Shown in pieces: positions 9,626 to 60,907 of a stretch of 64,000 nt of DNA. The stretch is from assembly GCA_964384425.1 (NCBI GenBank), contig CAYLKE010000002.1, forward strand, positions 10,365 to 74,364, given 5' to 3'. Below the pieces are notes generated by a model. It saw only the letters and a program-made list of their open reading frames with translations. It had not been told where the DNA came from and did no database searches. The position numbers and the translations under genes are program-made. Within the stretch, counting starts at the first letter, position 1, and every line of letters starts with the position of its first letter. This DNA is from an uncultured Methanosarcinales archaeon. GTDB lineage: Archaea > Nanobdellota > Nanobdellia > Woesearchaeales > JAGLXL01.

Positions 9626-10754
9626 CTTTACTTAAAAATTCCATAAATGCTTTTTTATTTTCAATAGGGGTAGTGGTTGGTCTTCCTAAATCTTTTCTTG
9701 CTCCTTTATTTACTTTAATTTCAAGTAATGCAGGACCTTCACATTCTTTAAGGATTTTTATTTTCTCTTTCAACTGAGATTCTGTTTCACAACTCATTAT
9801 TTCTTTGTAATTACATCCTTGTGCAATTTTTTCAAAATCCATTGTTTCTGCAACTGTTGGTTGCCCTCCAACTGAATCATGAGCACAATTATTGAAAATA
9901 ATGTGTTTAAAGTTTTTAGGTTCTAATGCTCCAGTAATTCCCATTGATCCCATATGCATTAATGCTGCTCCATCCCCATCAAAACAATATACTTGTTTAT
10001 TTGGTTTTTGCAATGCAATTCCTAATGCAATGGATGAACTATGTCCCATTGACCCAACTGTTAAAAAATCATTTGCATGTCCTTGACTTTTTTCTTCTCT
10101 GTATTCAAATAATTCTCGAGAAGTTTTCCCAGTAGTTGAAACAATAACTGCATCTAATCCTATTTCATTTGCAACAATTTTTACTGCATCTTCTCTACTC
10201 ATATCATATTGACAAATTGAATTAGCTTTTTCTGCTGAATATGATTCAAATAATCCTTTTCTTACAATTAAAGCATAAGGCTCATTTGTTTCTTTGATTT
10301 TACTTACTGCTGTATCAATTGTTTCTTTTGCTTTATCAATTTCATCAGATAATATTTCATATTTCATTCCAATTGCATCTAATAATCCAGTAGTAACCAT
10401 TCCTTGTTTTTTATGTTGAGGTTCATCTTTTTTACCTGGTTCTCCCCTCCATCCAATTAAAAGTAACATTGGGATATTATATACTTCTTTATCTGTTAAA
10501 GAAATTAATGGATTCATACAATTTCCTTGTCCAGAATTTTGCATATAAACTATTCCTATTTTATTAGTTGCAAGATGATAACCTGCTGCTAATGCAATTG
10601 CATTTCCTTCATTTGCTGCAATTATGTTATTTTTCTCTTCAACATTATCTAATAAATAAGCACAAAAATCTTTTAGTAATGAGTCTGGAACACCCGTGTA
10701 AAAGTTTACTTCTTTTTCTTTTAGTTTTTTATAAAAATCTTTACAATTTATCAT
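9618..10754 (-). CDS. ppd: Phosphonopyruvate decarboxylase (ThDP-dependent)
   Basis: It has the ThDP motif GDGAALMHMGS...NN and the size (378 aa) and layout of the Ppd/sulfopyruvate decarboxylase family. It is assigned to Ppd because it lies adjacent to PEP mutase. Confidence 0.8.
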   Translation of the reverse strand: MINCKDFYKKLKEKEVNFYTGVPDSLLKDFCAYLLDNVEEKNNIIAANEGNAIALAAGYHLATNKIGIVYMQNSGQGNCMNPLISLTDKEVYNIPMLLLIGWRGEPGKKDEPQHKKQGMVTTGLLDAIGMKYEILSDEIDKAKETIDTAVSKIKETNEPYALIVRKGLFESYSAEKANSICQYDMSREDAVKIVANEIGLDAVIVSTTGKTSRELFEYREEKSQGHANDFLTVGSMGHSSSIALGIALQKPNKQVYCFDGDGAALMHMGSMGITGALEPKNFKHIIFNNCAHDSVGGQPTVAETMDFEKIAQGCNYKEIMSCETESQLKEKIKILKECEGPALLEIKVNKGARKDLGRPTTTPIENKKAFMEFLSKDD

Positions 10755-10769
10755 TTTTCTTTCCTCTAT

Positions 10770-12068
10770 TTATTTCTCTGGTATTAACCTTAATATCTCC
10801 TTAATAGATAAGCAGTGTTCTCCTGCTTCATGACATCTTTCATTTGTTAAAATAGATTCAGCAGTTCTTACCATAGATGGATAAGCACTTCTAAGAAGAT
10901 GGTTAGCGTAAATAACAACACTTATTCCTGCTTTATTTAATTCCTTTTCTGAAATATGTCCATATGCAGTTGGAACTGCAATCAATGGAATTTTATTTTC
11001 AAATTGATTATATCTTTTACAAAATTCCATTAGTTCTGCTGTATCTGAATCTTTACTATGAATCATTATTGCATCAGCTCCCGCATTGATGTATGAATTT
11101 GCTCTAATCAAAGCATCTTCAACACCTTTTTTTAAAATAAGACTTTCAATTCTAGCGATAACCATAAAATCATCAGTAATTTGTGCTTTTTTACCAAGGG
11201 TTATCTTTTGTGAAAAAGCTTGAACAGTATCTTGTGTTTGTTGAACATCTGTTCCAAAAAGGGAATTTTTCTTTGCCCCAATTTTATCCTCTATAATGAC
11301 AGCAGAAACCCCCAATCTTTCTAATGTTTTAACCATAAAAGTAAAATGTTCTGGCAATCCTCCATTATCCCCATCAACAATTAATGGTTTAGTTGTTACT
11401 TCGAAAACTTCATTAATGGTATTAGTTCTAGATGAAAAATCAACACAACCAGTATCAGGTTTTCCTTTTGCAGTTGAATCTGTCAAACTACTTAGCCACA
11501 TTGCGTCAAATTCTTTAATTTTAACACCATCATTTATTTTTGTAGTTTCAACAATTCTTCCTGTTAGCCCATTATGGACTTCTAAAACTCTAACAATATC
11601 TTTTAATTCAAGCAATCTTCTAAGTTTCTTTCTTCTTACTTCTGGAGTTGTTCCTTTGTCAACAACATGTTTAATTATTTTTGTAGATGAAATATCTGGT
11701 GTGTATTCTGGTTCAACTAATTCTCCATCCCATTCTTTTAATGTTTCGATAACTCTTTCTCTTGTCTTTTTCTGAACACCTTCTCTCCAATCTGTTCCAT
11801 GAACAACATAATCTGGTTTTAATAATTTTAAGTTAGGAACATAATCTAATGTGTCTTGAGGAATTACACTTGTAACTCCTTTGATATTTTCAATAACTGC
11901 TTTTCTTTTTTCATAATCTAAAAAAGGAATTCTTTTGTAACTTGCAATTGCTTTATCTGTAAGAAGACCTATAGTTACATTACCTAACTTTCTAGCTTCT
12001 TTAATGATATTCAAATGGCCATGATGTATTATATCTCCACACATCCCAATATATACTTTTTTTGTCAT
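10770..12068 (-). CDS. pepM: Fusion protein: HxGH-type cytidylyltransferase (TagD/ECT-like) plus phosphoenolpyruvate mutase
   Basis: The N-terminal part has GDIIHHGH and ISSTKII, which are cytidylyltransferase signatures. The C-terminal part has [21 protein letters not shown] and the PepM-discriminating EDKX5NS motif ([10 protein letters not shown], nt 11262-11291). Confidence 0.9.
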
Positions 12069-12649
12069 TTTTTTTCACCACCTTTATGTATTTTAAATAT
12101 TTTTTTGATTATGTTTTCTGTTGATAATTTTTCATAGAATTCTGGTTGTACAATCTTTGCATTAATTTCTTTTATATATTTTTTTCCAGGAATATTTTGC
12201 CAATTAGAACCATAAATAACTATAACTTCAGCATTAGGAAATTGATTTTTAATTTTTCTTAAATTTTCAGTAGGATCAAATTCATTTTGATTCATAACCA
12301 TATCAACACACTGTAATGCAGATACAATGTTTTTTCTTTCTTTAAAATCAGCAATAGGTTCTTCTTTATATGTCTTTATTGCTTCATTTGTTAAAACCCC
12401 ACATATATGAAAATCTCCTAATTCATTTGCTTTTTGCAATAATCTTAAATGTCCATAATGAAATAAATCTGCAGTAACAGATGAGTAAACTATTGTTTTA
12501 GTTTTAATTTTTTCAATATCAACTACTTCCCCTTCTTTTATACCAGAATTCTTTGGAATTGTAACACACAATTGCCCATTTGATTTATTTATCCATATTT
12601 GTTTTTTCATATATAACATCCCATTTACTATTAACACTAGTATTAACAT
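12065..12649 (-). CDS. Cytidylyltransferase-family protein with N-terminal AbrB/SpoVT-like segment
   Basis: It has ADLFHYGH (HxGH) and LSTENII motifs. The N-terminal [18 protein letters not shown] resembles a swapped-hairpin AbrB domain. An alternative ATG at 12610 (MKKQIW) may be the true start. Confidence 0.7.
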
Positions 12650-24220: not shown

Positions 24221-26362
24221 TTAAACTCCTAACAACCCCAATATATCGTCCCCATATTTCATTATCTTTGTGGGACCCAGTCCATGAATTTCTTTAAGTT
24301 CATCTTTTGAAGAAGGCATTTTTTGCGCTATATCAAGAATTGTTTTGTCATTAAATATAATATATGCTGGTGTGTTCATTTGCTGGCTTAAATCTCTTCT
24401 CCAATCTTTTAAACGTTGCATAACATCAAGCATTGTTATATTTGTAGATCTATTAAGTGCTTTATTTTTTCTTAATTTTATTTCAGGAGCTTTTATTTTC
24501 TGTTTTTTCTTTTTCAGTATATTTTGCATTTCATCTGTTATAAAGTAAGTTGGAGATTTTGTTGAATATGTTATATATAAATTATCTTTTGCTCTTGACA
24601 TAGCAACATAAAATAATCTTTTTTCTTCCTCTTCTTTATCATATTCATCAACCTTAATAAGATCAACAACAGGATGCTCACTTGCTTTACATGGAAAATT
24701 CATTGCACTAGCACCTATTACAAAAACAACTTTTGCTTCTAATCCTTTTATTGCATGAACTGTTGCAAGAGTTACATCGTCTTTTGATGCCATCACACTT
24801 CTTCTAGTTTCATCAGAACGCACAATATGTTTTATATTATGTGCTTTTAAATAAACAGAAAGTTCATTTAATTGCTTATTTGTTCGAGCTAAAACAAATA
24901 TTTCAGAACGAGGTATGTTTGTTGAGAGTATCTTTCCAACAATAAATTCAAATTCTTCATTTTCTGAATTAAATTTTAAGAGATGTGTATCTTTTTCTCC
25001 ATCTCTTATTGATTCCAAATCATTTAATCCCAAAGATGATATGCTTTTGTTAATCAAATTAACAATATGTTTATTGGAACGATAATTTTTTGTTAGAGTC
25101 ACAATTTCACAATCAGGATATTTATCTTCAAAATTCATTATATATCCTATATCTGATCCTCTCCAACCATAAATTGATTGTCTTGGATCTCCAACACAAA
25201 AAAGATTTTTTGAATTAAGTGTATCTAATAGTTTTATCTGTGTTGAATTTACATCTTGATATTCATCTACAAGAATATGTTCAAATTGAGGAATAGTTTC
25301 AGGATGTGTTTCAAATAATCTAAGAACATCTATTAATTGATCTGCAAAATCTCTTAATCCTTTTTCTTTCATATAATCTTCTATAAAATTACACACCCCA
25401 TAAACGAGATTAACTGCACCAGCATGTTTTGAATCTTGCACAATAAAACTTTCTCTAGAAACAGGTTTATGTTTAAATTTAAGATAGTCTCTTATAAAAA
25501 AACAATCATTCATAAATATATTTGCAAGTTGATCTTGTGTTTTTGATTTTCTTTGGGCATAAGTAAAATAGATATTTATTGCTCTTCCCATATCAAGATT
25601 TATTGAATTAAGAGCTTTTTTTGTCATTATTATCTTATCCCTATAATTAATAACTTTCATTGTTCTATCATAAAGAAGATCATTATGTTTTCTCAACAAT
25701 TTTTCACAGAATGAATTAAATGTTTCAACACGAACTTTTTCCATCCCATTCATTTCAGATATTCTTTTAAGCATCTCACTTCTTGCTTTTCTTGTAAATG
25801 TTATTGCTAATATTTTATTAGAGTCTACTGATCTGTATTTTGAAAGAAATTGTATTCTTTTTGTAAGGACTGTTGTTTTTCCACTTCCTGCTCCTGCAAT
25901 ACATAAAACCTTATCATTGCAAGATATTATTGCTTTCTTTTGTTCATCATTGTATTTCCCTAAGAAATGATCAAGTGCTTTGAAAAGTTCTCTATCTTTT
26001 TCAGTTATTTCTGTTTTTATTTCCTTACAACTAAATGCAAGTTTCTTTTTGTAATGTTGAGGATTAGATATTTCTTTTATTCCTTTGTTTGTGAGTTGTA
26101 ATACTTTCAAGTATTTGTTATATGGTACTGAAATAAATCTTATTAATCCATTCATTAAAAGATTATCTACAAGATGCATAAGTTCATCTTGCTCATATGC
26201 CATACATCCAAATGAAGGCTTTTTATCTAAACTATTTCTTGTAATAGAAGAATTACTTTTATCTCCCCTAAGAAAATCAACTAAAAGCTTCTTTCCAACA
26301 TTAAATGGAAGCTCATTTAATGCTTTTAATATATTAAGATAGTCTAACTCTTTTTTTTGCAT
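24221..26362 (-). CDS. UvrD/PcrA-family SF1 helicase with N-terminal winged-helix and C-terminal HRDC domain
   Basis: It has Walker A AGAGSGKTT, DEYQD, NYRS, VHAIKGLEA and MSRAK helicase motifs. The C-terminal WRRDLSQQMNTPAYIIFNDKTILDIA...GLG segment is HRDC-like. Confidence 0.85.
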   Translation of the reverse strand: MQKKELDYLNILKALNELPFNVGKKLLVDFLRGDKSNSSITRNSLDKKPSFGCMAYEQDELMHLVDNLLMNGLIRFISVPYNKYLKVLQLTNKGIKEISNPQHYKKKLAFSCKEIKTEITEKDRELFKALDHFLGKYNDEQKKAIISCNDKVLCIAGAGSGKTTVLTKRIQFLSKYRSVDSNKILAITFTRKARSEMLKRISEMNGMEKVRVETFNSFCEKLLRKHNDLLYDRTMKVINYRDKIIMTKKALNSINLDMGRAINIYFTYAQRKSKTQDQLANIFMNDCFFIRDYLKFKHKPVSRESFIVQDSKHAGAVNLVYGVCNFIEDYMKEKGLRDFADQLIDVLRLFETHPETIPQFEHILVDEYQDVNSTQIKLLDTLNSKNLFCVGDPRQSIYGWRGSDIGYIMNFEDKYPDCEIVTLTKNYRSNKHIVNLINKSISSLGLNDLESIRDGEKDTHLLKFNSENEEFEFIVGKILSTNIPRSEIFVLARTNKQLNELSVYLKAHNIKHIVRSDETRRSVMASKDDVTLATVHAIKGLEAKVVFVIGASAMNFPCKASEHPVVDLIKVDEYDKEEEEKRLFYVAMSRAKDNLYITYSTKSPTYFITDEMQNILKKKKQKIKAPEIKLRKNKALNRSTNITMLDVMQRLKDWRRDLSQQMNTPAYIIFNDKTILDIAQKMPSSKDELKEIHGLGPTKIMKYGDDILGLLGV

Positions 26363-31687: not shown

Positions 31688-32398
31688 CTATTCCAGAATC
31701 TTTATAATACCTGGCATGATTTCAAAAATTTCTCCTTCTGCAATCATATTTTTTATCAACTTCTCAGCGTCTGGGACGGTTGATTGAGAAATAATATCGT
31801 CCATTGGAGCTCCATCTCCATTATCCAGTTTTCTTATAGTGTTTATTATATTTTCTATAGGAGCTTCAACATCATCTTTTTTTTCCTTATCTTCTTTAGA
31901 AATATCATTCTTTTTCTCTTCAATTGAATTAGGGGTTTCTTTATTTTTTGATTCTACTTCCTTCACACTTTCTGTATCAGAAACATCATACTTATATTTC
32001 TTATTCTCCTTTTTCTCTTTTTTCTTAACACCATAAATTTCAAGTTCTTTTTGCCTATATTTAACCCATTCAGAAGAATTTAGTTTTTTTATACCTCTTG
32101 GAATAATATATTTTTGATTATTAAAATATCCAAATGTTCCAAAAACACCTATACATGATCCAACAGATACACCATCAAGATTAGAATTATTGTAAATAAC
32201 TTCTATATTGCCTGTTCCATCTTCTATTGTTATTTTCTGAATACCTATATTTACAACAATACCAATTACATTAACCCTATAAACTTCTTCTTCATTTATG
32301 ATAAGTGCATCTGGTTCAGAGGATTCAGATTTTTTATATTCTGCATCATTCATCTGACTTATGCTTACTTTCACGTGTGAGTTTGCTTTGAAATCCAT
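31688..32398 (-). CDS. OB-fold plus C-terminal winged-helix protein, RPA32/Stn1-like
   Basis: It has an OB-like segment (VNVIGIVVNIGIQKITIEDGTGNIEV), an acidic/Lys-rich linker and a C-terminal wH-like segment (MDDIISQS...LIKNMIAEGEIFE). Its start codon overlaps the leuS stop as TAATG. Confidence 0.4.
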   Translation of the reverse strand: MDFKANSHVKVSISQMNDAEYKKSESSEPDALIINEEEVYRVNVIGIVVNIGIQKITIEDGTGNIEVIYNNSNLDGVSVGSCIGVFGTFGYFNNQKYIIPRGIKKLNSSEWVKYRQKELEIYGVKKKEKKENKKYKYDVSDTESVKEVESKNKETPNSIEEKKNDISKEDKEKKDDVEAPIENIINTIRKLDNGDGAPMDDIISQSTVPDAEKLIKNMIAEGEIFEIMPGIIKILE

Positions 32399-35097
32399 TA
32401 TAATAATTTTATTGCGACCTTTCCAGGTAGCGAATGTCGTGCCTTACTATCCATTGAAGTATCAGCATCATATACATGTACCTTACATCCAAATTCATCT
32501 TCAATAAGTTTTGAAAAAAAGTTAAGATTTTCCATTTCTTGTTTTTTTGTGAATATTTCTTTTGGAAGTAATGAAGTATCTTTCATCACTCTAGATATTA
32601 TTTTAATAACATCTTTTGAATTTTTCTTTATTTCATCATCTTTCATTGCATCTGCAATTATAATTTTATTGTCTCTTTTATCTATATGTTCCTTAATAAT
32701 ATTATAGAGTTTATATTTCCAATTTTCTGCAACATATAATTCAATACCATTGACTTTTTCTGTCTTAATCATCTTCATAATAGCTTTTACATCAGAACGA
32801 ATAGTAGATATTTTGTCATGAAGTTCATGTAGACCTAATTTAATACTATCTTTACTTGCACTTGGCCATTGCATTTCATAAATACATTTTTCATTTGAAT
32901 TATCTTCCATAGAATTCAATATCTCATTCATCTCCTCTGTAAGATGAGGAGCTACTGGATTAAGCAACACAATCAATTTTTTCAAAACATAATTAAATGT
33001 TTTTTTTGTTATTCCTAATTTTGATATTTCAATAAAATCATTTGTAAGTTTCATTATCTCACTTATTGCAAAATTAAATTTATAATTTTCATAATGTTTT
33101 GTTGCATTTATTATTGTTGAATTCAAACAAGATTTTAACAACATATCTCCATATCCTTCTTTATCAATTGATTTGTAATTCTTATCAATAAGATTTGCAA
33201 ATTTATGTAAAAACCTAAAAATTCCTTCTACTCCTTTATCATTCCAATCCATTTCTTTTTCAGGCTGAGACGCAAACAATATGAATGTTCTTGCTGTATC
33301 CGCCCCATATTTGTCAAGTATTTCTTGAGGATCAACTGTGTTTCCTAAGGATTTAGACATTTTTGCTCCATCTTTTAATACCATTCCTAATGTCAACAAT
33401 TTCTTAAAAGGTTCATCCAAATCCACTAATCCCATATCTCTCATTGCTTTTGTATAGAATCTTGAATACAATAAATGAAGAATTGCATGTTCAACTCCAC
33501 CCACATAATAATCAACTGGCATAAATTTATCTGCTTTTTCTTTTGAAAATATCCTTTCATCATTGTCTTTATCTAAATATCTTAAGAAATACCAACTACT
33601 ATCTACAAAAGTATCCATTGTGTCTGTTTCTCTACGAGCATCTGCCCCACACATTGGACATTTTACATTTACAAATGAAGAAGATGTTTCAAGTGGATTA
33701 CCTTTTCCATCAAATGTTGCATCATCAGGAAGTTCCACAGGTAATTGTTCTTCTGGAACAGTCTGAGGCCCACATTTATCACAATATATTATAGGGATAG
33801 GTGTTCCCCAAAATCTTTGACGAGATATCAACCAATCTCTTAATCTGAAAGTAGTCTCTTTCTTTCCCCAATTATTTTTTTCAAGATAATCTTGTATTTT
33901 AGGAATAGCATCTCTATTATTCATTCCATCAAATTGTCCACTATTTACAAGTTCTCCATCATCTGAATAAGCTTCCTTAAGCTCATTGTTAAGAACTTCT
34001 TTTTTCTCGTCTGCAATTACAACTTTTATAGGAAGATTGTATTTTTTTGCAAATTCAAAATCTCTTTGATCATGTGAAGGGACAGCCATTACTGCTCCTG
34101 TTCCATAATCTGCTATTACATAATCGCCAACCCATAAAGGAAACTTTTCATTATTAACAGGATTAATAGCATAACGACCCAAGAAAACTCCTTTTTTCTC
34201 TCTGCTTTCCATTTGTCTTTCCAAAGGTGTCACTTTTGCTGCTTCTTTTACAAATTCTTTAACTTCCTCTTCTTGAGGTGTTCCTTTTGCTAATTCTAAA
34301 ACATCATTTGATTCAGGAGCAAAAACAAGATAAGTTATACCATAAATAGTATCAACTCGGGTTGTGAATGTCTCAATTTCCTTATTCATTCCATCAATCT
34401 TAAACTTAATTATTGTCCCTTCAGATTTCCCTATCCAGTTTTTCTGCATAGTTCTAACCTTTTCAGGCCATTCTTCTAATTTATCAATATCTGCAAGTAA
34501 TTCTTCTTGATAATTTTTTATTTTATAATACCATTGATCCAAGGGCTTCTGAATTACATCTCCACTACATCTCCAACATTTTCCATCGATAACTTGTTCA
34601 TTTGCAAGAACAGTATTACATTTATCACACCAATTAATTAATCCTGCTTTTCTATATGCTAAACCTTTCTTAAACATCTGTATAAAAAACCATTGATTCC
34701 ATTTGTAATATTGAGAATAACAAGTTGGCATAAATGTGTCCCAATCATAACTAAAACCCATCATCTTTAATTGTTCTACCATTGACTTCATACATTTCTC
34801 AGTCCATTGTTTTGGATGAGTCCCATGCTTGATAGCTGCATTTTCTGCAGGCATACCTAATGCATCAAAACCAATTGGATAAAACACATTGAATCCATTC
34901 AAACGCTTAAATCTAGCAACAACATCTCCCAATGAATAATTTCTTACATGCCCCATATGTAATTTTCCACTAGGATAAGAAAACATTTCAAGAGTATAGA
35001 ATTTAGGTTTATCAGATTTCCAATCTGTCTTAAATGCCTTTTTCATAGCCCAATTATTTTGCCATTTTCTTCCTATTTCAGTTAAGTTTATATCCAT
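32398..35097 (-). CDS. leuS: Leucyl-tRNA synthetase
   Basis: It has HMGH ([14 protein letters not shown]) and KMSKSLGN class I signatures, a CWRCSG zinc module and a CP1 editing-domain segment (TTRVDTIYG). Confidence 0.95.
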
Positions 35098-38664: not shown

Positions 38665-39867
38665 ATGCTTTGGACAAAGAAATATATCCCAAAAAATAGT
38701 AAAGAAATTGTAGGTAATGATGCTAATATAAAAAAGATAATCAATTTTATCAGTAATTATAAAAAACAAAAAAAGAAAGCAGTTTTACTTTATGGGCCTT
38801 CTGGTGTTGGAAAAACTTGTTCAGCTTATGCTATTGCAGATGAATATGATACAGAATTATTAGAACTTAATTCATCAGATTTTAGAGATACAAATAAAAT
38901 TAAACAGATAATTGGTGGAGCAGCTAATCAAATGTCTTTATTTTCAAAATCAAAAATAATATTTATAGATGAAATTGATGGATTTAGTGGAGTTAAAGAT
39001 AGAGGAGGGATAACAGCACTTACACAGATAATGAAAAAAAGTTCTTTTCCAATAATACTTACTGCAGATGATCCATGGAATAAGAAGTTTTCATCATTAA
39101 GAAAACAATGTCTTATGATAGAAATGGGAAAATTAAATTATTCTGATATTTTTGGAGTAATAAAGAATATAGCAGATAAAGAAAATATAAAATATGATAT
39201 TAATGCACTTAAAAAACTTGCAAGATATAGTGGAGGAGATTTAAGAGCAGCTATTGTTGATTTGCAATCATCTGTTCAAAATAATAAGTTTGAAAAAAAG
39301 AATCTTGATAAAATCAATTTTAGATATCCCAATGAAAAGATATTTGATGTTCTTGTGAGGTTATTTAAGACAACAGATGCAAAAGTTGCTTATGATTCAT
39401 TAAGTAATCTAGATGATTTGAAAGATGTTGCATTATGGATAGAAGAAAACATTCCAAAAGAATATAAAAAACCAAAAGATATTTACAGAGCATTTGAAGC
39501 ACTTGCATCATCTGATAGATTTTATGGAAGAATAAGAAAACAGCAATATTGGAGATATTTTGTTTATTATTTGATTATGATGAGTTCAGGTGTTGCACTT
39601 GCAAAAGATGAAAAATATCATGGGCTTACACAATATAAAAGAACAGAAAGACCTCTTAAAATATGGATGGCAAATATGAGAAATGCTGCCAAAAGATCAA
39701 TAATTCAAAAATTAGCAGATACATTGTCTATATCAAAAAGAAAAACATATACTATATTAAATGAAATAAAATTCATATATCAACATGATAAAATATTTAA
39801 AGAAAAAATAAATGAATTACTTGAATTAGATAATAAAGAAATTGCTTGGTTAGAAAAAAAAAGTTAG
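38665..39867 (+). CDS. rfcL: Replication factor C large subunit
   Basis: It has WTKKYIPKNSKEIVGN, Walker A GPSGVGKT and Walker B FIDEIDG, and its length and layout match archaeal RfcL. Confidence 0.85.
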   Translation: MLWTKKYIPKNSKEIVGNDANIKKIINFISNYKKQKKKAVLLYGPSGVGKTCSAYAIADEYDTELLELNSSDFRDTNKIKQIIGGAANQMSLFSKSKIIFIDEIDGFSGVKDRGGITALTQIMKKSSFPIILTADDPWNKKFSSLRKQCLMIEMGKLNYSDIFGVIKNIADKENIKYDINALKKLARYSGGDLRAAIVDLQSSVQNNKFEKKNLDKINFRYPNEKIFDVLVRLFKTTDAKVAYDSLSNLDDLKDVALWIEENIPKEYKKPKDIYRAFEALASSDRFYGRIRKQQYWRYFVYYLIMMSSGVALAKDEKYHGLTQYKRTERPLKIWMANMRNAAKRSIIQKLADTLSISKRKTYTILNEIKFIYQHDKIFKEKINELLELDNKEIAWLEKKS

Positions 39868-42981: not shown

Positions 42982-43073
42982 ATTTATTAACCACTAAACA
43001 GTGATTTATAAATATTTCGTAAAGAACCAGCATACATAAAACATCATAAAATATAATAAAACAAAAAAATAAA

Positions 43074-43177
43074 TGGGCCCACCCGGACATTCGGTAACAA
43101 CCTCGTCCGTTGCTCACATTCGAACCGGGGATCAACGCCGTGTAAAGGCGTTGTCATAACCACTAGACCATGGGCCC
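43074..43177 (-). tRNA. tRNA-Val(UAC): tRNA-Val (anticodon UAC) containing a 31-nt intron in the T-loop
   Basis: The reverse complement folds as a perfect cloverleaf. The acceptor stem is GGGCCCA/UGGGCCC, the anticodon stem is ACGCC/GGCGU with loop UUUACAC, and the T-stem is CCCGG/CCGGG with loop UUCGAAU. The discriminator is A and CCA is not encoded. Removing 31 nt leaves 73 nt. Confidence 0.9.
43087..43117 (-). other. Non-canonical tRNA intron (position 59/60 or 60/61) with bulge-helix-bulge motif
   Basis: The T-stem is followed by a 4-bp helix (U54-G57 with C85-A88), flanked by 3-nt bulges A58A59U60 and U89G90U91. An inner helix pairs G61-A64 with U81-C84. The exact boundary is ambiguous by 1 nt. 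Confidence 0.75.
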
Positions 43178-43243
43178 TTTATGTTAATTTAATACTAAAA
43201 ACACAATACCTTTTTAAATTTTTATAATGCTTATATAAATATT

Positions 43244-44530
43244 ATGGCAAAAATATACTTTGAAACATATGGATGTACATTAAATCATGCAGATACAGAA
43301 CATATGGCTCAATTATTAAAAGAAGCAGATTTTGAAATAACAGAAAACATAAAATCTTCAGATATTATCATAATAAATTCATGTGCAGTTAAGTCACCCA
43401 CTGAAAATAAAATATTAAATAGAATTGAAGAACTTAAATATAGATATGAAGATAAAAGAATAATTGTTACTGGATGTATTGCACAAGCATATCCTGAAAA
43501 AATAGATGACCTTACATTATTAGGAACACATAATATTGATGATATTGTTGATATTGTGGAAGAACTTCTTGAAGAAAATATAATAAGACATTTAACACAA
43601 ATAAATAATCCTCAACTTTTGACAAAAACATATAAAAAAAATAAAGCAATAGGCATAATACCTATTTGCAGAGGATGTTTAGGTAATTGTAAATATTGTA
43701 TTGTAAAAAAAACAAGAGGTAAACTCCATTCTTACTCAATAGAAAATATAATAAAAAAAGCAAAAGATCAGATAAGATCTGGAGTGAGAGAAATATGGCT
43801 GACAGCACAAGATACAGGATGTTATGGAAAAGATATTGGAACAAATATAATTGAATTATTAAAAAATATTTTATCATTAGAAGGTAAATTTATGATAAGA
43901 TTAGGAATGATGAATCCTAATTTTGCACTAGAATTTAAGGAAAAACTACTTGATATTTTTAAACACAAAAAAATGTTCAAATTTATTCATCTTCCAGTGC
44001 AAAGTGGAAGTGATAGTGTTCTTAAGAATATGAATAGAAAATATACTGCAAATGAGTTTATTCAACTTGTAACATTTTTAAGACTAAATATTCCTGATAT
44101 CACTATAGCAACAGATATAATTGTAGGACTTCCAGAAGAAAAGGATGAAGATTTTGAAAAGACAAGAGAACTTTTAAGACAAACACGACCAGAAGTTGTA
44201 AATCGTTCTCGTTATTGGAAAAGAGATAAGACAGAAGCTGCTAAGATGAAACAAATTCCAGGAAATATTACAAAAGATAGATCACGTTTAATAGAGGATC
44301 TTCATAGAAAAATAGCTTTAATGATGAATGAAAAATGGATGAAATGGGAAGGAAAAGTTATTGTTGATGAAATAGGAAAAGAAAAATCAATGTTAGGAAG
44401 AAACTTTGCATACAAACAAGTTGCAATACCTGATTCACAAGACAAGTTAAAGATAGGAGATATTGTTAATGTGAGAGTGAGAAAAGTTACCCCTCATTAT
44501 TTATTAGGAGAGATTATAGAGAATAAATAA
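43244..44530 (+). CDS. Archaeal-type MiaB-like radical SAM methylthiotransferase (e-MtaB/CDKAL1-like)
   Basis: It has the N-terminal UPF0004 Cys pattern (ETYGCTLN, NSCAV, TGC), a radical SAM CLGNCKYC cluster and a C-terminal TRAM-like domain. Confidence 0.8.
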   Translation: MAKIYFETYGCTLNHADTEHMAQLLKEADFEITENIKSSDIIIINSCAVKSPTENKILNRIEELKYRYEDKRIIVTGCIAQAYPEKIDDLTLLGTHNIDDIVDIVEELLEENIIRHLTQINNPQLLTKTYKKNKAIGIIPICRGCLGNCKYCIVKKTRGKLHSYSIENIIKKAKDQIRSGVREIWLTAQDTGCYGKDIGTNIIELLKNILSLEGKFMIRLGMMNPNFALEFKEKLLDIFKHKKMFKFIHLPVQSGSDSVLKNMNRKYTANEFIQLVTFLRLNIPDITIATDIIVGLPEEKDEDFEKTRELLRQTRPEVVNRSRYWKRDKTEAAKMKQIPGNITKDRSRLIEDLHRKIALMMNEKWMKWEGKVIVDEIGKEKSMLGRNFAYKQVAIPDSQDKLKIGDIVNVRVRKVTPHYLLGEIIENK

Positions 44531-45260: not shown

Positions 45261-46187
45261 ATGGCTATCTCAAAACTTAGATCAAAAAGTTTCTTAAAGG
45301 GACTAAAAGGCAAAAATCCAGAAGATGATCAGAAAATTGTAAAAGAACATATAAGCAATATAAAAAGAGTTGCGAAATCAGGAGATAATGAAGAATTAGA
45401 TATGCATATAAAAGAACTTGAACATTATGTAAAAAGATTGTTAAATGTTCAAAAAAATATGATGTCAAAAGAATCTAATGATTTCATTAAATTAAAAGAA
45501 CAAATGAAAGATTTAAGAGCAAGATTAAAATTAACTTCTTTAACAACACCAAAACAACTTGATAAGATAGAGTTTTTATTGGGTGAAATGAGTTCTCAAT
45601 TATCTACATATAACAAAGTACAAAATAGAAGAGAGCAAAAGATGCTTGAACTTGAAAGAAAAGTCAATGAATCAATTGCAAAAAATTATAGTGAAATTCT
45701 TATTGTTGAAAAACAAATAAAAGGACTTGAAAATAAATATGATAAATTAAAAGAATCATCAGATATAGATTCAAAAACATTAAAAAGATTAGAAAACAAA
45801 ATAAATGATTTAAAAGCACGTTTAATAGATAAGAAAGCAGAAATTGTCGAGAGAAAACAACAAGAAATGATGCAACAACATTTAAATCATGATAAACAAA
45901 CACATCTTGATGAGATATCTACACCATATTCAAGTTCATTTCAAAAACCAAAAGAAGAAAAACTTTTAGAAGCAGAACACCATGCTTTATTAGAAGATAT
46001 GCATGAAGAAAATCCTTTTAAGCAACCCCCACATAGTTTAGATGATATTCCTGAACCTCACCCATTAGATAATGAAACAAAAGAAGACATAGACATGGAT
46101 GATTTTGATACTGATTTCTTAGAAGAAGAAAAAGAAGGTTTCTTCAAAAGAATAATAAACAAAATAAAAAGTTGGTTTAGTCGTTAG
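45261..46187 (+). CDS. Coiled-coil protein with acidic tail and amphipathic C-terminal helix
   Basis: The ATG at 45261 sits 1 nt after the upstream stop, whereas the listed TTG at 45243 would overlap it. The protein has a long heptad region, an acidic DMDDFDTDFLEEE segment and then GFFKRIINKIKSWFSR. Confidence 0.5.
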   Translation: MAISKLRSKSFLKGLKGKNPEDDQKIVKEHISNIKRVAKSGDNEELDMHIKELEHYVKRLLNVQKNMMSKESNDFIKLKEQMKDLRARLKLTSLTTPKQLDKIEFLLGEMSSQLSTYNKVQNRREQKMLELERKVNESIAKNYSEILIVEKQIKGLENKYDKLKESSDIDSKTLKRLENKINDLKARLIDKKAEIVERKQQEMMQQHLNHDKQTHLDEISTPYSSSFQKPKEEKLLEAEHHALLEDMHEENPFKQPPHSLDDIPEPHPLDNETKEDIDMDDFDTDFLEEEKEGFFKRIINKIKSWFSR

Positions 46188-47796
46188 AATGCAATCTTAG
46201 ATTTATTGATTTTTCTATGATATTTAATTTTTTAAGTTTGACTCCTGCCATGATCAACATTCTTTTAGATGCTTTTACTCCATCAGTATGTGCATATTTA
46301 TCATGAAGGTAAACTATTTCTTTTATACCTGATTGAATAATTAATTTAGCACATTCATTACAAGGAAAAAGATCCACATAGATTCTTGCACCTTGTAAAT
46401 TCTTTGTTGAATTTAATATTGCATTTGCTTCTGCATGTACAACATAAGGATATTTATTGTGTAAACTATTTTTATTTTCTCTTGCCCAAGGCAATTCATC
46501 ATCTGAACAACCAATTGGAAAACCATTATATCCAATACCTATTATTTTATTACGTCCATTTACAATACATGCACCAACTTGTGTGTTAGGATCTTTACTT
46601 CTATGTGCAGAAAGTTTTGCTATACCCATAAAATATTCATCCCAAGAAATATAATCAGATCTTTTTGAAACAATAGATGAAGGTTGGTTCTCATTAAAAG
46701 ATTCTTTTTTTGTATTCATTTCTTTTTCATTCTTATTATCTATTTTTTCATTATATTCTTCAGTTTCTTCTTGAGATTCTCCATTAAGTTCTTCGTTAAA
46801 TTCTTCAGGAATATCATCCAATGAGTTGTTTTTAACTTTTTTAAATTCTTCATAAGAACTCTTTTTTTCTATCTCACCTATTTCTTTATTTCCTTCTTCT
46901 ATTATTCTAGAAACAGGTTCACTCATCTCTTGCTTATTGTTTTCATCTATGTCCTTATTTGTTATGTTTTCTATGTCTTCCACTTCTGTTCTATCTTCTG
47001 TTCTGTCTTCTACTCTGTTTTCTGCTCTATCTTCCACTTTGTCTTCTTTTCTATCTTCTGCTCTGTCTTCCACTTTGTCTTCTGTTCTATCTTCTCTAAC
47101 CATATCTTGATTATTTTCTCTTATATTATCTTCTTTAATCATATTATTTTGATTTATGTCTTCTTCATTAACATTAATTATATCTCCTGCAACATCTTCT
47201 TGTTTTTCAGTTGCTCCTGAGAATTTTGGTTGATTTTGGATAATTTCCAATGCACAATCAACTTGCTTATGTAATTCACTTCTTTCTCCATCATTTGTAA
47301 AATTATAATCTGCCAAAGAGATACATTTAGACAAGTTCTGTTTATGTGGATTATCTGAAGTCATTTCTCTTTCTTCATTTGCAACAAATTCTGAGAAAGA
47401 AACATTGTCTGTTTCACTTAATCTGCTTGATATTCTTTCATACCTTATTTTAGGATCTGCATCAACTGAAAACAAGAAAAAATTACCTTTTTCTCTTAAA
47501 GAATTTACTTCACCTTCTGTTCTTAAGCTTTCAATAATAGCATTTTTTCCATCTTCTTTTGCTTTTTTATAAAGTTCTTCAGCAATATAGCTTGGAGAAT
47601 TTTTTGCACGTAGATCATTTCCAACAACAACCATACTATCTCTATTGACAGATAAACCTCTTTTTTTTATCTCTTCTTTAATAAATTCTCTTGCAGAATA
47701 ATGTTTAAAACCTTTTTCAAACATCAAATAATCAACAATAGTGCCTTTACCGGCCCCTAATGTTCCTGTAATTCCAATAATAATTTTTTCTGACAT
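46177..47796 (-). CDS. Fusion protein: P-loop nucleotide/nucleoside-kinase-like domain, long acidic repeat linker, dCMP deaminase
   Basis: The N-terminal part has Walker A GITGTLGAGKGT. The C-terminal part has the HAEANAI and PCNECAKLI zinc motifs of the dCMP/CMP deaminase family. A linker of about 190 aa carries EDR/EDK repeats. Confidence 0.8.
   Translation of the reverse strand: MSEKIIIGITGTLGAGKGTIVDYLMFEKGFKHYSAREFIKEEIKKRGLSVNRDSMVVVGNDLRAKNSPSYIAEELYKKAKEDGKNAIIESLRTEGEVNSLREKGNFFLFSVDADPKIRYERISSRLSETDNVSFSEFVANEEREMTSDNPHKQNLSKCISLADYNFTNDGERSELHKQVDCALEIIQNQPKFSGATEKQEDVAGDIINVNEEDINQNNMIKEDNIRENNQDMVREDRTEDKVEDRAEDRKEDKVEDRAENRVEDRTEDRTEVEDIENITNKDIDENNKQEMSEPVSRIIEEGNKEIGEIEKKSSYEEFKKVKNNSLDDIPEEFNEELNGESQEETEEYNEKIDNKNEKEMNTKKESFNENQPSSIVSKRSDYISWDEYFMGIAKLSAHRSKDPNTQVGACIVNGRNKIIGIGYNGFPIGCSDDELPWARENKNSLHNKYPYVVHAEANAILNSTKNLQGARIYVDLFPCNECAKLIIQSGIKEIVYLHDKYAHTDGVKASKRMLIMAGVKLKKLNIIEKSINLRLHSND
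46975..47097 (-). repeat. Imperfect 12-nt tandem repeats (about 10 units) encoding (V/K)EDR(A/T)ED-type acidic repeats
   Basis: The plus strand reads tctgttctatct/tctgttctgtct/tctgctctatct/tccactttgtct and so on. The translated repeat is REDRTEDKVEDRAEDRKEDKVEDRAENRVEDRTEDRTE. Confidence 0.85.
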
Positions 47797-55037: not shown

Positions 55038-56000
55038 TTAGTTCTTACCGCACAGGGTCACAAACGCGATTAAAGATTCTAGCTGAATAAATTCATCACT
55101 TCCTTCGACGAGATGAAACTCTGTCTCACCGCATTTCTCAATAATTTTTATCTTATCTGTATCTTTTATACTTGTATTCCACATCTCACCCTGTAATTGC
55201 TTTATAATATCTAATCCAGCTAATCCATTGTTTAACATAGTCTTTAATAATAATTCTTTTGATTTAACAAATTCTCCTTGATAAGCAAGTTCTAAAATTT
55301 TCCTTATGTCTTCTGGTTGTGCCATTGAAGCAGTCATAATAACCTTATCAGAAGTTATATCTTTTCCAAGTGATGCAGCAGATTGTAATGTATTTTCAAG
55401 TTTTCTGCAATCTCCTTTACTTACTTTGTATAGTAATTCTCTTGATTCATCATCAATATTTAAGCCTTCTCTCTCGCATATTTGGTCGATTATATTATTT
55501 ACAGCTTCTTTTGAAAGAGGTTTGAATCTAAAAATTGCACATCTTGATTGAATAGGATCAATTATTTTTGAAGAATAATTACAGCTTAATATGAAACGAC
55601 ATGTACTAGTATAGTTTTCCATAGTTCTTCTTAATGCTTGTTGAGCTTCTTTTGTTAAAGCATCACTTTCATCAAGATAGATTATCTTAAATGGAACATC
55701 TCCTAATGCACGAGTTCTTGCAAAATCCTTTACTTTAACTCTTACAACATCTATTCCTCTTTCATCTGATGCATTAAGTTCTAAAAAATTATCTTTCCAA
55801 CTGTCTCCAAATATTTTTTTTACAATAACTAGAGAAAGAGATGTTTTTCCAACACCTGCAGGACCAGAAAATAAAAGATGAGGTAGATTTCCATTTTCAA
55901 CTAGACTGCTTATTCTAGCTACAATCTGTTCTTGACCTTTTATGTCTTCAAAAGACTGTGGTCTATACTTCTCAGTCCATATAATATGTGAATCTACCAT
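55038..56000 (-). CDS. rfcS: Replication factor C small subunit
   Basis: It has WTEKYRPQSFEDIKGQ, Walker A GPAGVGKT, Walker B YLDESDALT and an SRC motif (IQSRCAIFRF). It carries no intein. Confidence 0.92.
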   Translation of the reverse strand: MVDSHIIWTEKYRPQSFEDIKGQEQIVARISSLVENGNLPHLLFSGPAGVGKTSLSLVIVKKIFGDSWKDNFLELNASDERGIDVVRVKVKDFARTRALGDVPFKIIYLDESDALTKEAQQALRRTMENYTSTCRFILSCNYSSKIIDPIQSRCAIFRFKPLSKEAVNNIIDQICEREGLNIDDESRELLYKVSKGDCRKLENTLQSAASLGKDITSDKVIMTASMAQPEDIRKILELAYQGEFVKSKELLLKTMLNNGLAGLDIIKQLQGEMWNTSIKDTDKIKIIEKCGETEFHLVEGSDEFIQLESLIAFVTLCGKN

Positions 56001-57247: not shown

Positions 57248-60200
57248 TTATCCAAAATAATTTGGTGCAGGTTCTGGATTCATTTCTTCAGAATTAGAAC
57301 GTTTTATTTTAGATTTTATTTTTTTGTAGTTATCTTCTGCTTTTTTTGTTACAGAACCTTTTACAATCTTAAGTGCTTCTTTAAAATCAGACATAGCCAC
57401 TTTTTTCTTTTTTCCTTTTCTAATAACATTCATAGCAGCTTCCCTACACACAGACTCAATATCTGCCCCCACATAACCTTCTGTCTCATCTGCTAATTTT
57501 CCAAGATTAACATTACTTTCTAAAGGAATTCCTCTTGTGTGAACTTCAAATATCTTTTCTCTAGTTTTCTTGTCTGGAACCCCACATAATATAACTCTAT
57601 CAAATCTTCCTGGACGTAGTAAAGCAGGATCAACAATATCTGGACGATTTGTTGCTGCTATAACAACCAATCCTTTTGTTTCTTCTAATCCATCCATTTC
57701 AGTAAGAAGCTGATTAACAACCCTTTCAGTAACATTATTTTCTTGTCCTCTTCCTCTTCTAGGAGCTATTGCATCTATTTCATCAAAAAATATAACTGTT
57801 GGGGACGATTGACGAGCTTTTCTAAAAACTTCTCTTATTGCTTTTTCACTCTCACCTACCCATTTACTTAGTAAGCTAGGACCATTGATTAATATGAAAT
57901 TTGCTTCAGTTTGATTAGCAACAGCTTTTGCAAGCAATGTTTTTCCAGTACCTGGAGGACCAAAAAGCAAAACACCTTTTGGAGGTTGAATTCCAAATTC
58001 TTTGAATTTTTTTGGTCTGTTCAATGGCCATTCAACTGATTCTTCTAATTGTTCTTTTACATCATCTAATCCACCAATATTTTTCCAAGTAACATTTGGA
58101 ATCTCAACAAGAACTTCTCTCATTGCACTAGGACGTACAACTTTTAATGCTTCCATAAAATCTTCATGATTTACTTTTAATTTATCCAAAATTTCAGGAG
58201 GAATTGGATTATCTTCATTTAAATTAAGATCAGGCATTACTCTCCTTAATACAACCATTGCTGATTCTTTTGCAAGTGCTGATAAATCTGCTCCCACAAA
58301 TCCATGTGTTATTCTTGCAAGTTTTTTTAATTTAACACTTTTATCTAAAGGCATATTCCTAGTATGTACTTTCAAGACCTCTAATCTTCCTTCTTGATTT
58401 GGAGGACCTATCTCAATCTCTCTGTCAAATCTTCCAGGTCTTCTAAGAGCTGGATCAAGTGAATTAGGAATATTTGAAGCTGCTATAACAATTGTTTTAC
58501 CTCTACTTTTTAATCCATCCATCAAACTTAACAATTGTGCAACAACTCTCTTTTCAACTTCTCCTTTTGTTTCTTCTCTTTTTGTTGCAATAGCATCTAT
58601 TTCATCAATAAAAATTATACTTGGAGAATTCTTCTCAGCTTCTTCAAATTTCTTTCTTAGATTATTTTCACTTTCTCCATAAAACTTACTATTATGTAAA
58701 ACGAAATAAGGAGCTACTATGAAACTATCATCATTAACAGTAAAATCATATAACTCAATTTTACCTTTTTTGTTTATCTTCTCTACTTTTTCCCAAGAGA
58801 TATCATCTCTCATTAACAGATTAAATTCATCATTTATTGATTTATCAAGAATTCTATTCTTCTTTGCTATATCATATAATACTTTTAATGAATGTTTTGT
58901 TGCATTGCCTGTTTTATAAACATAATAATCTTTGTTTCTATATTTTTTGTAAGGCAAAGTTCTTATTTTTTTAATTATATTTAAGGGATGAGGAATGTTT
59001 TCATGTTCTTTGATTCTTTTTACTTTATTTATTTCGTTTAATCTTTTTAATTTCTCTCCACTTTTAGGTTTTATGTTAAGAAATTTTTTTCTACCATCAA
59101 AACCCCTGATTATTAATTTATGCATTAATCCTTTTTTAGTCTTATGTTTTTTGAGATGGGTTTTTATTTTTAATTTTAGACTTAAAAGAGATTGTAATTG
59201 ATAAAGAAATTTTTCATCTTTTGCATAAATGATAGGAGTAGGATATTCTAGATTATTAATTTTTAATTTAGCTACACTTCCATCACCATCAAAATAACCT
59301 CTGACAAATGATTTAATTTCTTCTTTAGGTAAATTAATAAAATAAGGAGGAATAATAACTTTTGAATTAGCTGTAAATCCTAATTCTTTAATTATTTCAA
59401 CTATTAATTTAGAATAAACAATAACACCTAAGTTTTTGCCATTATTTTTTTCTTTAAAGTCAGTTATTCCAAAAACTTTTTTTATTAAATCTTTAAATCT
59501 TTTTATAAGAACTGCATCTTGATTGTAAAATCCTATTGAATCGCCTTTTTTTGATATATTTCCATCAGAAACAATTAAACCTAGAATTTCTAATAAATCA
59601 GGATTTGTTTTTTTAGGTATTTTAATAAAATTACTTCTTGAAAGATTTTTGCTTTTCAATGCATACATCTCATTCTTTTTTACTAAATTCTTAATTAATG
59701 GGATTTTGTAACTTTTTTCAGGAAGACTAATAGAATTTATTTTAAGTACATATTCTCCTGGAAGAATATTTTTTAGTGGTTCCCAAGTTAATCCGTTATT
59801 TCTATAAACTAAAAAAGGTTGATTTTCAGATGTTGTTAATTTACTTCCATCTTTAAACTCAATCTCATACCCTTCTGCTTTTAATTTTGTTACATGAGTT
59901 ATTTTTGATGAAACACATTTTTCTTTAAATGCATAATTACTAATTGGTTTTTTAAGTGTTTTAACAGAGTATCCATTAATATTTTCTATACTGCCCCCTC
60001 TTTCATACAATTTTTTAGCATTAATAAATCCTTTTTTTGTTAAAATAGGTGTATCTCCAGTAACACACATAATTTCTGGACCATTAATTAATATAAAATG
60101 TGAATTTGTCTCAGAAGCAACTGCCTTTGCAAGTAATGTCTTTCCAGTACCTGGAGGACCATGTAAAAGAACTCCTTTTGGAGGTTCTATTCCTAATCTT

Positions 60201-60907
60201 TCAAATAATTCAGGATGTTTTAGTGGGAGTTCGACCATTTCCCTAATCTTTGAAATCTCATCCTTTAATCCACCAATATCTTCATAACTTATCATAAATT
60301 CTGTTTCTGAATCTTTAACTTCAACTGCTTCTGGATTAAGTTCAATCTCTGTTTCAGATGTTATTATTAAAGGTGTTTTTGAAGGACTTGAACTTACAAT
60401 ATTGAATAATATATCACTAAATCCAAAACTACCCATACTCCCATTAAGACGTGTGAGAAATTCTTCCATTGGAGAACCTGGTTGAGCATGAAGTGTTCTT
60501 CTTCTTCCACTCAGAGATATAAAATCTCCTTTCATGATTGGTCTTCCTAAAAATCCTCTTTTGAATACATTTGGTGAAGCACGAATATGAATTCCTTTTT
60601 TAGCAGGAGCTATTGTAATTTTTTTAGCAGGTTTTACTTCTGTTTTTGTTAGTTGAACAAATTCTCCTAAAGTTACTTTTGCATTTCTTCTAGTAATACC
60701 ATCCATTCGGATAATATTTAATCCTAAATCTCCAGGATATGCTTTTTGAACTATTGCTAATGTTGTTCTATTTCCTATTATTTCAACAACATCTCCTTCT
60801 AAAACACCTATTTGAGCCATGAAACTTGAATCTATTCTTATTATGCCTTTGTTAACGTCTTCATTAACTGCACCAGCAACTTTTAGTTTGATATTTTTAT
60901 TTTCCAT
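57248..60907 (-). CDS. cdc48: CDC48/VAT-type AAA+ ATPase (two AAA modules) interrupted by an intein
   Basis: It has a CDC48 N-domain and D1 Walker [10 protein letters not shown]1 Walker B (FIDEIDA) lies after the insertion. D2 has GPPGTGKT and FFDEIDA. The extein length is 760 aa after removing 459 aa. Confidence 0.95.
58691..60067 (-). mobile_element. Intein (459 aa) with LAGLIDADG homing-endonuclease domain, inserted in the [13 protein letters not shown] motif of CDC48 D1
   Basis: It starts at Cys (CVTGDTPIL; codon 60065-60067) and ends at VLHN (Asn codon 58691-58693) with +1 Ser. The LAGLIDADG blocks are [13 protein letters not shown] and [11 protein letters not shown]. The flanks reconstitute the conserved [13 protein letters not shown]. 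Confidence 0.9.

Follow-up and report, generated by a model that had tools for sequence, protein, structure and literature searches.

In the canonical bulge-helix-bulge (BHB) motif of the archaeal 37/38 tRNA intron, the central helix H takes up positions 32-35, with anticodon nucleotides 34-35 inside it, and the 5' bulge consists of positions 36 and 37 and the first intron nucleotide (PMC4090602). In the strict form of the motif, hBHBh', an outer helix h and an inner helix h' lie on either side of the two bulges and H. The T-loop site 59/60 is among the listed non-canonical intron positions (PMC4090602). In ARMAN-2, the pre-tRNA-Cys(GCA) has a 13-nucleotide (nt) 59/60 intron of the hBH type, which is cut in vitro by the cognate splicing endonuclease EndA, and the pre-tRNA-Pro(GGG) is interrupted at 53/54 and at 59/60 by introns of the strict hBHBh' form (PMC3239211). 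Here, we describe a tRNA-Val(UAC) gene with a 31-nt intron at 59/60, found in a 64-kb stretch of contig CAYLKE010000002.1 from an uncultured archaeon (the whole stretch is called the window below). The intron position and the splicing mechanism are already known, and no new mechanism is involved. Since both have been published before, the gene in the window adds another case of a known intron type. Its relatives, in turn, carry introns at the same site in dozens of genomes.

The gene occupies 104 nt on the minus strand, 43177..43074, and consists of GGGCCCAUGGUCUAGUGGUUAUGACAACGCCUUUACACGGCGUUGAUCCCCGGUUCGAA, UGUGAGCAACGGACGAGGUUGUUACCGAAUG and UCCGGGUGGGCCCA (the 5' exon, the intron and the 3' exon). 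This sequence is present exactly as it had been given in an earlier reading of the DNA alone (the sequence-only reading). The exons are contiguous, collinear and both on the minus strand, as are all features of the gene given below. The 5' exon (43119..43177, tRNA positions 1-59) contains the acceptor 5' strand, the D-arm, the anticodon arm, the variable loop, the T-stem 5' strand and U54-A59. The anticodon UAC (positions 34-36) lies at 43142..43144 in the loop UUUACAC, as read from the ARAGORN cloverleaf of the spliced sequence. The intron UGUGAGCAACGGACGAGGUUGUUACCGAAUG covers 43088..43118 (pre-tRNA nt 60-90; 52% G+C). The 3' exon (43074..43087, tRNA positions 60-73) contains U60, the T-stem 3' strand, the acceptor 3' strand and the discriminator A73, and CCA is not encoded. 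Spliced alignment finds this single intron and places it between T-loop nucleotides 59 and 60 in Sprinzl numbering. The 73-nt mature form lacks position 17 and has 20a, so that its linear index equals the Sprinzl number from 21 on.

Removal of nt 60-90 from the pre-tRNA leaves 73 nt that ARAGORN calls as tRNA-Val(tac), and the gene is complete. The unspliced 104-nt gene gives no ARAGORN tRNA call, intron mode included. The spliced tRNA has a 7-bp acceptor stem (1-7/97-103 in the pre-tRNA), A73, U33, G18G19 and a 5-bp anticodon stem 27-31/39-43. Its T-arm is CCCGG-UUCGAAU-CCGGG, with U54U55C56 and A58 present. The sequence-only reading had described the cloverleaf after removal of the 31 nt as flawless. 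The cloverleaf itself is recovered, but the adjective is slightly generous: U13-U22 is a non-Watson-Crick stem position, the only one. Both bases are invariant in all relatives, so that U13/U22 is a trait of the family and not damage.

The base composition of the gene also stands out. Its G+C content is 58-60%, compared with a mean of 26% for the window, and scans with 60-nt and 34-nt windows find it to be the strongest G+C island in the 64 kb and the sole non-coding one. The raised G+C of both gene and intron in a genome of 26% G+C argues for selection on structure. No further tRNA genes or non-coding islands were found in the window by ARAGORN, by Rfam at the gathering score or at E <= 5, or by the G+C island scans. 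Upstream, a TATA-like box, TTTAAAAA, lies at 43211..43218, 41-34 nt before the mature 5' end, and is a candidate archaeal promoter; in a genome of 26% G+C, such a box is weak evidence for a promoter on its own. Directly after the discriminator A73, the oligo-T tract TTTATTTTTTT (43063..43073), which includes T7, is a candidate archaeal terminator.

The T-arm and the insert together form a strict BHB. In the outer helix h, the T-stem 5' strand C49-G53 (43125..43129) pairs with its 3' strand (mature C61-G65, pre-tRNA 92-96; 43082..43086). The central helix H joins U54 U55 C56 G57 (43121..43124) in 4 bp to the intron nucleotides C85 G86 A87 A88 (43090..43093). It is flanked by two 3-nt bulges on opposite strands, A58 A59 U60 on the 5' side (43118..43120) and U89 G90 U91 on the 3' side (43087..43089). 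The inner hairpin h' (43094..43117) pairs 61-64 with 81-84 (G-C, U-A, G-U and A-U), is extended by 66-69/77-80 and ends in a 7-nt loop. These pairings, all of which the sequence-only reading had listed, exist in the pair list, and the three helices are also seen in the constrained fold. When the T-stem alone is constrained, the T-arm and insert adopt the strict 3-4-3 hBHBh' as their minimum free energy (MFE) fold, with an h' of 4(+4) bp and nothing opposite the 5' bulge. Among 200,000 shuffled inserts, a strict BHB in register arises in 0.35% when h' has at least 3 bp and in 0.14% when it has at least 4 bp. The hBHBh' geometry claimed at the outset is borne out by the fold, and the structure is more than chance.

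In the proposed pathway, the precursor made by transcription would comprise about 104 nt and short flanks. The precursor would form the strict hBHBh' in which the T-stem acts as h, U54-G57/C85-A88 as H and the intron hairpin as h', with the two 3-nt bulges in between. The archaeal splicing endonuclease EndA would cleave after A59 and after G90 to free the 31-nt intron, and an RtcB-type ligase would join the exons, restoring the 7-nt T-loop UUCGAAU. RNase P and RNase Z would trim the ends and CCA would be added enzymatically, after which the tRNA would presumably serve in translation. The predicted cut positions, A59/U60 in the 5' bulge and G90/U91 in the 3' bulge, follow from the structure by analogy with the canonical 37/38 BHB, and the 3-nt length of the 3' bulge is kept in the relatives. 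Because U60 and U91 are both U, removal of 60-90 or of 61-91 yields an identical mature RNA, and it is the BHB geometry that assigns the cuts to the bonds after A59 and after G90. As modelled here, this T-loop intron corresponds exactly in its arrangement to the canonical 37/38 intron of the anticodon loop.

Relatives were searched with the exons and any filler, as the pattern CCCGGTTCGAA-N{21,46}-CCGGGNGGGCCCA. It matches 23 loci in species-representative genomes (596 Gb), nearly all of them from Woesearchaeota or Nanoarchaeota, where about 0.4 chance matches are expected by estimate, and 35 contigs in metagenomes. Ten loci were dropped from the statistics, namely nine high-GC soil contigs that share one identical sequence and a chance match with 66% G+C (L038). 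The 49 retained loci, including the window, are low-GC DPANN loci with 43 distinct inserts of 20-45 nt (median 31), a length range limited by the search pattern. The proposal that a tRNA-Val(UAC) gene is interrupted at 59/60 by a 31-nt BHB intron agrees with all the tests that were available, and with the site shared by these 49 loci it comes out strengthened.

The inserts at the shared site are unrelated in sequence to that of the window, and the latter has no exact match in species-representative genomes. However, they keep the strand that forms H. The 4-mer located exactly 3 nt before the T-stem 3' strand is CGAA in 20, AGAA in 10, UGAA in 6, CGGA in 3 and CGAG in 1, with a few others. It pairs with UUCG (U54-G57) at all four positions in 30/43 inserts and at three of the four in the remaining 13/43, compared with 0-4 inserts of the 43 that reach full pairing at any of seven neighbouring offsets. 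The 3-nt 3' bulge is AGU in 30/43. On the 5' side, the clean 3-nt bulge is replaced in many relatives by asymmetric internal loops, which are relaxed, hBH-like motifs of the kind known from the literature. The inner helix of the relatives was judged by constrained folds, as the motifs of most relatives are relaxed and do not fit strict-register scoring. The copy in the window is among the strictest BHBs of the family. The relaxed motifs in many relatives, in turn, argue for a broad-specificity EndA in the lineage.

With the T-loop insert taken out, most relatives are called as a tRNA by ARAGORN, and all relatives that are otherwise uninterrupted are tRNA-Val with the anticodon UAC, CAC or GAC. 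In the spliced alignment to mature tRNA-Val, which is accurate to about 2 nt at the boundaries, insertions recur at three sites: ~20/21 in the D-loop, ~37/38 in the anticodon loop and 59/60. One intron is found in 15 genes, two in 17 and three in about 17, so that about two thirds of the genes have additional introns. Three genes scored with four introns probably reflect an alignment artefact and are counted among the three-intron genes. The multi-intron tRNA-Val genes are 130-216 nt long (for example L010 at 1691-1861 on the plus strand, and L012, L014, L021, L033, L046, L053, L057 and L061). Within loci L004-L061, such genes are mislabelled by ARAGORN and have no match to the Rfam tRNA model.

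The spliced relatives also evolve as tRNAs do. In 12 distinct single-intron genes spliced in silico, 99.2% of the stem cells are paired as a cloverleaf. Double-sided changes occur in five pairs, four of the five anticodon-stem pairs and pair 7-66, which is above shuffled and slid controls. The T-stem and most of the acceptor 3' strand are fixed by the search pattern and are therefore uninformative for covariation. Outside the genes, a TTWAWA/TATA-like box starts at -34 to -30 in 34/43 distinct relatives, and a run of at least four T within 15 nt downstream is found in 22/43. In five loci (L003, L019, L045, L053 and L056), the intron-bearing tRNA-Val belongs to a tRNA cluster just upstream of the 16S rRNA gene. 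The tRNA-Val copy of the window has no rRNA nearby.

The dropped soil loci (L016, L031, L034, L040, L042, L043, L044, L048 and L059; 53-57% G+C) share one identical sequence that matches the pattern. Their insert forms no BHB at 59/60, with only 2/4 pairs in H, and no tRNA is recovered after its "splicing". Instead, a 10-bp helix, GGCGAGUCCG/CGGACUCGCC, surrounds the 5' part of the T-arm. This sequence may represent a tRNA gene of a soil archaeon that is disrupted or split in a different way.

Considering the intact exons, the strict motif and its rarity by chance, the archaeal context and the conserved site, H strand and covariation of the relatives, the locus is very probably a functional, EndA-spliced tRNA-Val(UAC) gene of an uncultured AT-rich DPANN archaeon (Woesearchaeota/Nanobdellota-like). 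Five observations pull in the other direction. First, neither EndA nor RtcB is encoded in the 64-kb window or in 3.5 kb of extra flank, according to a Pfam search of about 50 open reading frames (ORFs) plus a relaxed scan (E <= 1) of ten unannotated ORFs. Likewise, a tblastn search with the EndA of M. jannaschii, verified against PDB 1A79, gave no match on 411 kb comprising the window and the fetched loci. Second, one related contig (L055) has a tRNA-Val(UAC) on its minus strand (about 8290-8370) with an anticodon-loop intron only and an uninterrupted T-loop. The same contig also bears a Val gene with the T-loop intron, so that the presence of the intron varies among the Val genes of one genome. 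This copy indicates that the intron is frequent but not universal. Third, the TATA-like box of the window sits 8-10 nt farther upstream than that of the relatives. Fourth, the full 104-nt MFE is -42.2 kcal/mol, with the D/variable region mispaired, versus -39.9 for the cloverleaf with the BHB; such a discrepancy is common for tRNAs folded in silico. Fifth, the intron of the window has no homologue among the 58 related loci, which leaves no covariation for its h'.

The first alternative is that the locus is a decaying tRNA-Val pseudogene with a random 31-nt insertion in its T-loop, and that an intact tRNA-Val(UAC) elsewhere does the work. A member of the group can indeed hold a Val(UAC) without the T-loop intron, as the L055 contig shows, and the gene is missed by standard detectors. 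However, a random insert forms a strict BHB in register in about 0.1-0.4% of cases. Moreover, the exon stems and conserved positions are all intact and identical or nearly identical to those of the relatives, and gene and insert keep 52-60% G+C in a genome of 26% G+C. Same-site inserts with the same H strand occur in all 49 DPANN loci, whose spliced forms covary like tRNAs. Decay is accordingly a very unlikely account of the locus.

According to a second alternative, the insert is the scar or remnant of a mobile element, a virus or a plasmid, or a transposed intron that is still moving. Integration into tRNA genes is common, introns of Thermoproteales have been proposed to transpose (PMC4090602), and repeated gain is compatible with family introns that are mutually unrelated in sequence. 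Yet neither a duplicate of an exon fragment nor another copy of the intron (<= 3 mismatches) occurs in the window, and the adjoining genes are a hypothetical gene and a methylthiotransferase gene, with no integrase. The insert, of only 31 nt, lacks the length to encode anything. We regard such an origin as highly improbable. A transposed BHB intron would also be spliced alike, so that this alternative concerns the origin of the intron and not its mechanism.

Still less credible is a third alternative, in which the gene is expressed and the insert is either retained, giving an expanded T-arm, or cut at other bonds, giving the T-loop UUCGAGU. The cut positions are predicted ones, and a 7-nt loop would likewise remain if both bulges were cut one nucleotide earlier. 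A pyrimidine at position 60 of the T-loop is near-universal, however, and the final U of the conserved 3' bulge (AGU/UGU) restores the pyrimidine-60 T-loop UUCGAAU. This loop is the one seen in the archaeal tRNA-Val of L055 that has no T-loop intron. From what is known of tRNA structure, a retained insert would create a 38-nt T-loop and abolish the tertiary interaction between D-loop and T-loop. The published BHB geometry likewise places the cut after the second bulge nucleotide, the equivalent of 37/38 (PMC4090602).

Three further identities were rejected: a self-splicing group I/II intron (the insert has 31 nt and matches no Rfam intron family at E <= 10), a split or permuted tRNA gene (the exons are contiguous and collinear, and no additional exon copies occur in the window) and a C/D-box guide RNA within the intron (31 nt is too short, and a C or D box is not seen).

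The interrupted tRNA-Val gene is easily overlooked by standard tools, as the sequence-only reading had anticipated. ARAGORN reports no tRNA in the whole window, and Rfam reports nothing at gathering thresholds. At permissive thresholds, the Rfam tRNA model aligns to nt 1-51 of the gene only, with 24.4 bits compared with a gathering score of 29. Among 20 related loci, none of the tRNA-Val genes with a 59/60 intron reaches 29 bits, and the best is a partial match of 28.4 bits (L045). Eleven neighbouring tRNAs at those loci score 47-63 bits. Several of these are 100-114 nt long and presumably carry introns that the Rfam model tolerates. Since the intron lies in the T-loop and not in the anticodon loop, detectors that allow only anticodon-loop introns fail. 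The BHB routine of tRNAscan-SE 2.0 uses two intron models, trained on Cren-/Euryarchaeota and on Thaumarchaeota but not on DPANN (PMC8450103).

The genes around the tRNA identify the host as an archaeon. They include the large (38665-39867) and small (55038-56000) subunits of RFC, L11, TrmB, HerA, NMD3, RNase J and an archaeal-type ms2t6A methylthiotransferase. The RFC small subunit has 100% matches on a 115.8-kb NCBI contig and on a Logan assembly of SRR15425353, and its closest non-self homologues belong to Candidatus Woesearchaeota or Nanoarchaeota, with 63-69% identity. These genes and homologues place the organism in the Woesearchaeota/Nanobdellota group of DPANN, as an uncultured archaeon of unusually high A+T content. 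The methylthiotransferase gene (43244-44530, plus strand) is the divergent neighbour of the tRNA, and its start lies 67 nt from the tRNA 5' end. It encodes the archaeal/eukaryotic type of the enzyme (TIGR01578; MiaB-like-B, ms2t6A37), which modifies tRNA. t6A is found in tRNAs reading ANN codons, and tRNA-Val is not an expected substrate, so that the adjacency is probably coincidental. In species-representative genomes, this enzyme has no close relative and matches distant bacterial ones only.

Several other genes of the window deserve mention. The gene at 57248-60907 (minus strand) encodes a 1219-aa CDC48-type AAA ATPase that is split by an intein with a LAGLIDADG homing-endonuclease domain; this call comes from precomputed Pfam matches for the identical gene in L026. 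The leucyl-tRNA synthetase (LeuRS) at 32398-35097 (minus strand) has a PF13603 editing domain (E = 3.8e-68). Bacterial LeuRS typically carry this domain, which suggests a bacterial-type enzyme in this archaeon. A large glycosyltransferase/polysaccharide cluster at 149-22042 contains a phosphonate-type gene set (8492-12649, minus strand) with a PEP mutase-cytidylyltransferase fusion, a TPP-dependent decarboxylase, an Fe-alcohol dehydrogenase and a second cytidylyltransferase. Its gene content suggests surface glycans decorated with phosphonates. At 24558-24655 (minus strand), a sub-threshold match to Rfam n00280 (50.9 bits, compared with a gathering score of 65.2), a family named "C. difficile sRNA included into helicase gene", falls within the UvrD-like helicase ORF 24221-26362. 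It is most likely conserved coding sequence and not an RNA gene. A 539-aa fusion protein is encoded at 46177-47796 (minus strand). It has an N-terminal nucleotide-kinase-like domain, a long, acidic low-complexity EDR/EDK repeat and a C-terminal dCMP/dCTP-deaminase domain, the last with a weak match to a model of an anti-phage dCTP deaminase.

For annotation, the point is that ARAGORN does not see the sole tRNA gene of the 64 kb, which is also sub-threshold for the Rfam tRNA model. In dozens of DPANN species, tRNA-Val is interrupted by the T-loop intron, often together with introns in the D-loop and the anticodon loop. The gene may serve as a DPANN training case for BHB-intron models that were built on Cren-, Eury- and Thaumarchaeota (PMC8450103). 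In the literature searched, there is no description of a T-loop intron shared by tRNA-Val across many Woesearchaeota-like genomes, commonly with two further introns.

The finding touches on a small question, still open, about the tRNA sets of DPANN. Among the genomes for which Kaneta et al. (2018) predicted tRNAs were those of a single Woesearchaeote and a single Pacearchaeote, and incomplete tRNA sets were taken to point to disrupted genes still to be identified (PMC5829648). A survey of 208 complete Nanobdellota genomes, a preprint of 2026, reports that tRNA-Val went undetected in 15/54 Pacearchaeales and tRNA-Trp in 30/123 Woesearchaeales, and states that the data cannot discriminate between loss, detection failure and split genes (10.64898/2026.05.13.725050). 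The intron-bearing gene structure described here is a concrete candidate for the detection-failure option in genomes with "missing" tRNA-Val. It is quite possible, although we would stop just short of calling it probable, that the 59/60 intron is an old, lineage-wide trait of tRNA-Val in Woesearchaeales and Pacearchaeales (Nanobdellota), often stacked with D-loop and anticodon-loop introns, and that this trait, rather than loss or split genes, explains the missing tRNA-Val and perhaps the missing tRNA-Trp. If so, the small EndA of the reduced-genome Nanobdellota must handle relaxed BHBs at three tRNA sites.

Two wider claims of the sequence-only reading need correction when the gene is set beside the known systems. 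It had placed non-canonical intron positions mainly in Thermoproteales and a few other lineages, but 59/60 was already listed (PMC4090602) and ARMAN-2 is a precedent within DPANN (PMC3239211). It had also drawn implications for the EndA type, naming broad-specificity heterotetrameric and epsilon2 forms. A strict hBHBh' alone does not require such an enzyme, and an alpha4-type EndA with an extra L3 loop is reported for several DPANN lineages, where it is associated with more disrupted tRNA genes (PMC5829648).

The canonical 37/38 hBHBh' intron (Marck & Grosjean 2003; reviewed in PMC4090602) and the window intron share the same plan. In both, h is the stem of a hairpin with a 7-nt loop, H arises where the first four nucleotides of that loop pair with the 3' end of the intron, and splicing takes place after the sixth. 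The difference is that the canonical intron lies in the anticodon loop, whereas the intron of the window lies in the T-loop. The multi-intron tRNAs of Thermoproteales (Sugahara et al. 2008; PMC8450103) have non-canonical BHB introns, up to three per gene, as do the relatives of the window gene. Thermoproteales, however, are Crenarchaeota with an (alpha-beta)2 EndA and the GC-rich genomes of thermophiles, and the window gene itself has one intron. Nanoarchaeum equitans is, like the host, a member of DPANN, and EndA cuts the BHB-like structure through which the halves of its split tRNAs are joined (Randau et al. 2005; summarised in PMC4090602). There, separate halves are trans-spliced, whereas the window gene has an intron in cis.

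Among the closest described cases is that of ARMAN-2 (Ca. Micrarchaeum; Fujishima et al. 2011, PMC3239211), which resembles the window in being DPANN and in having BHB-type splice sites at 59/60, and whose tRNA-Pro(GGG) has the strict hBHBh' form of the window gene. The two differ in lineage (Micrarchaeota versus Woesearchaeota-like), in the tRNAs concerned (Cys and Pro versus Val) and in intron length (13 nt in tRNA-Cys versus 31 nt). The EndA of ARMAN-2 is the epsilon2 form. Unlike in ARMAN-2, the 59/60 site is common to the tRNA-Val genes of dozens of related species.

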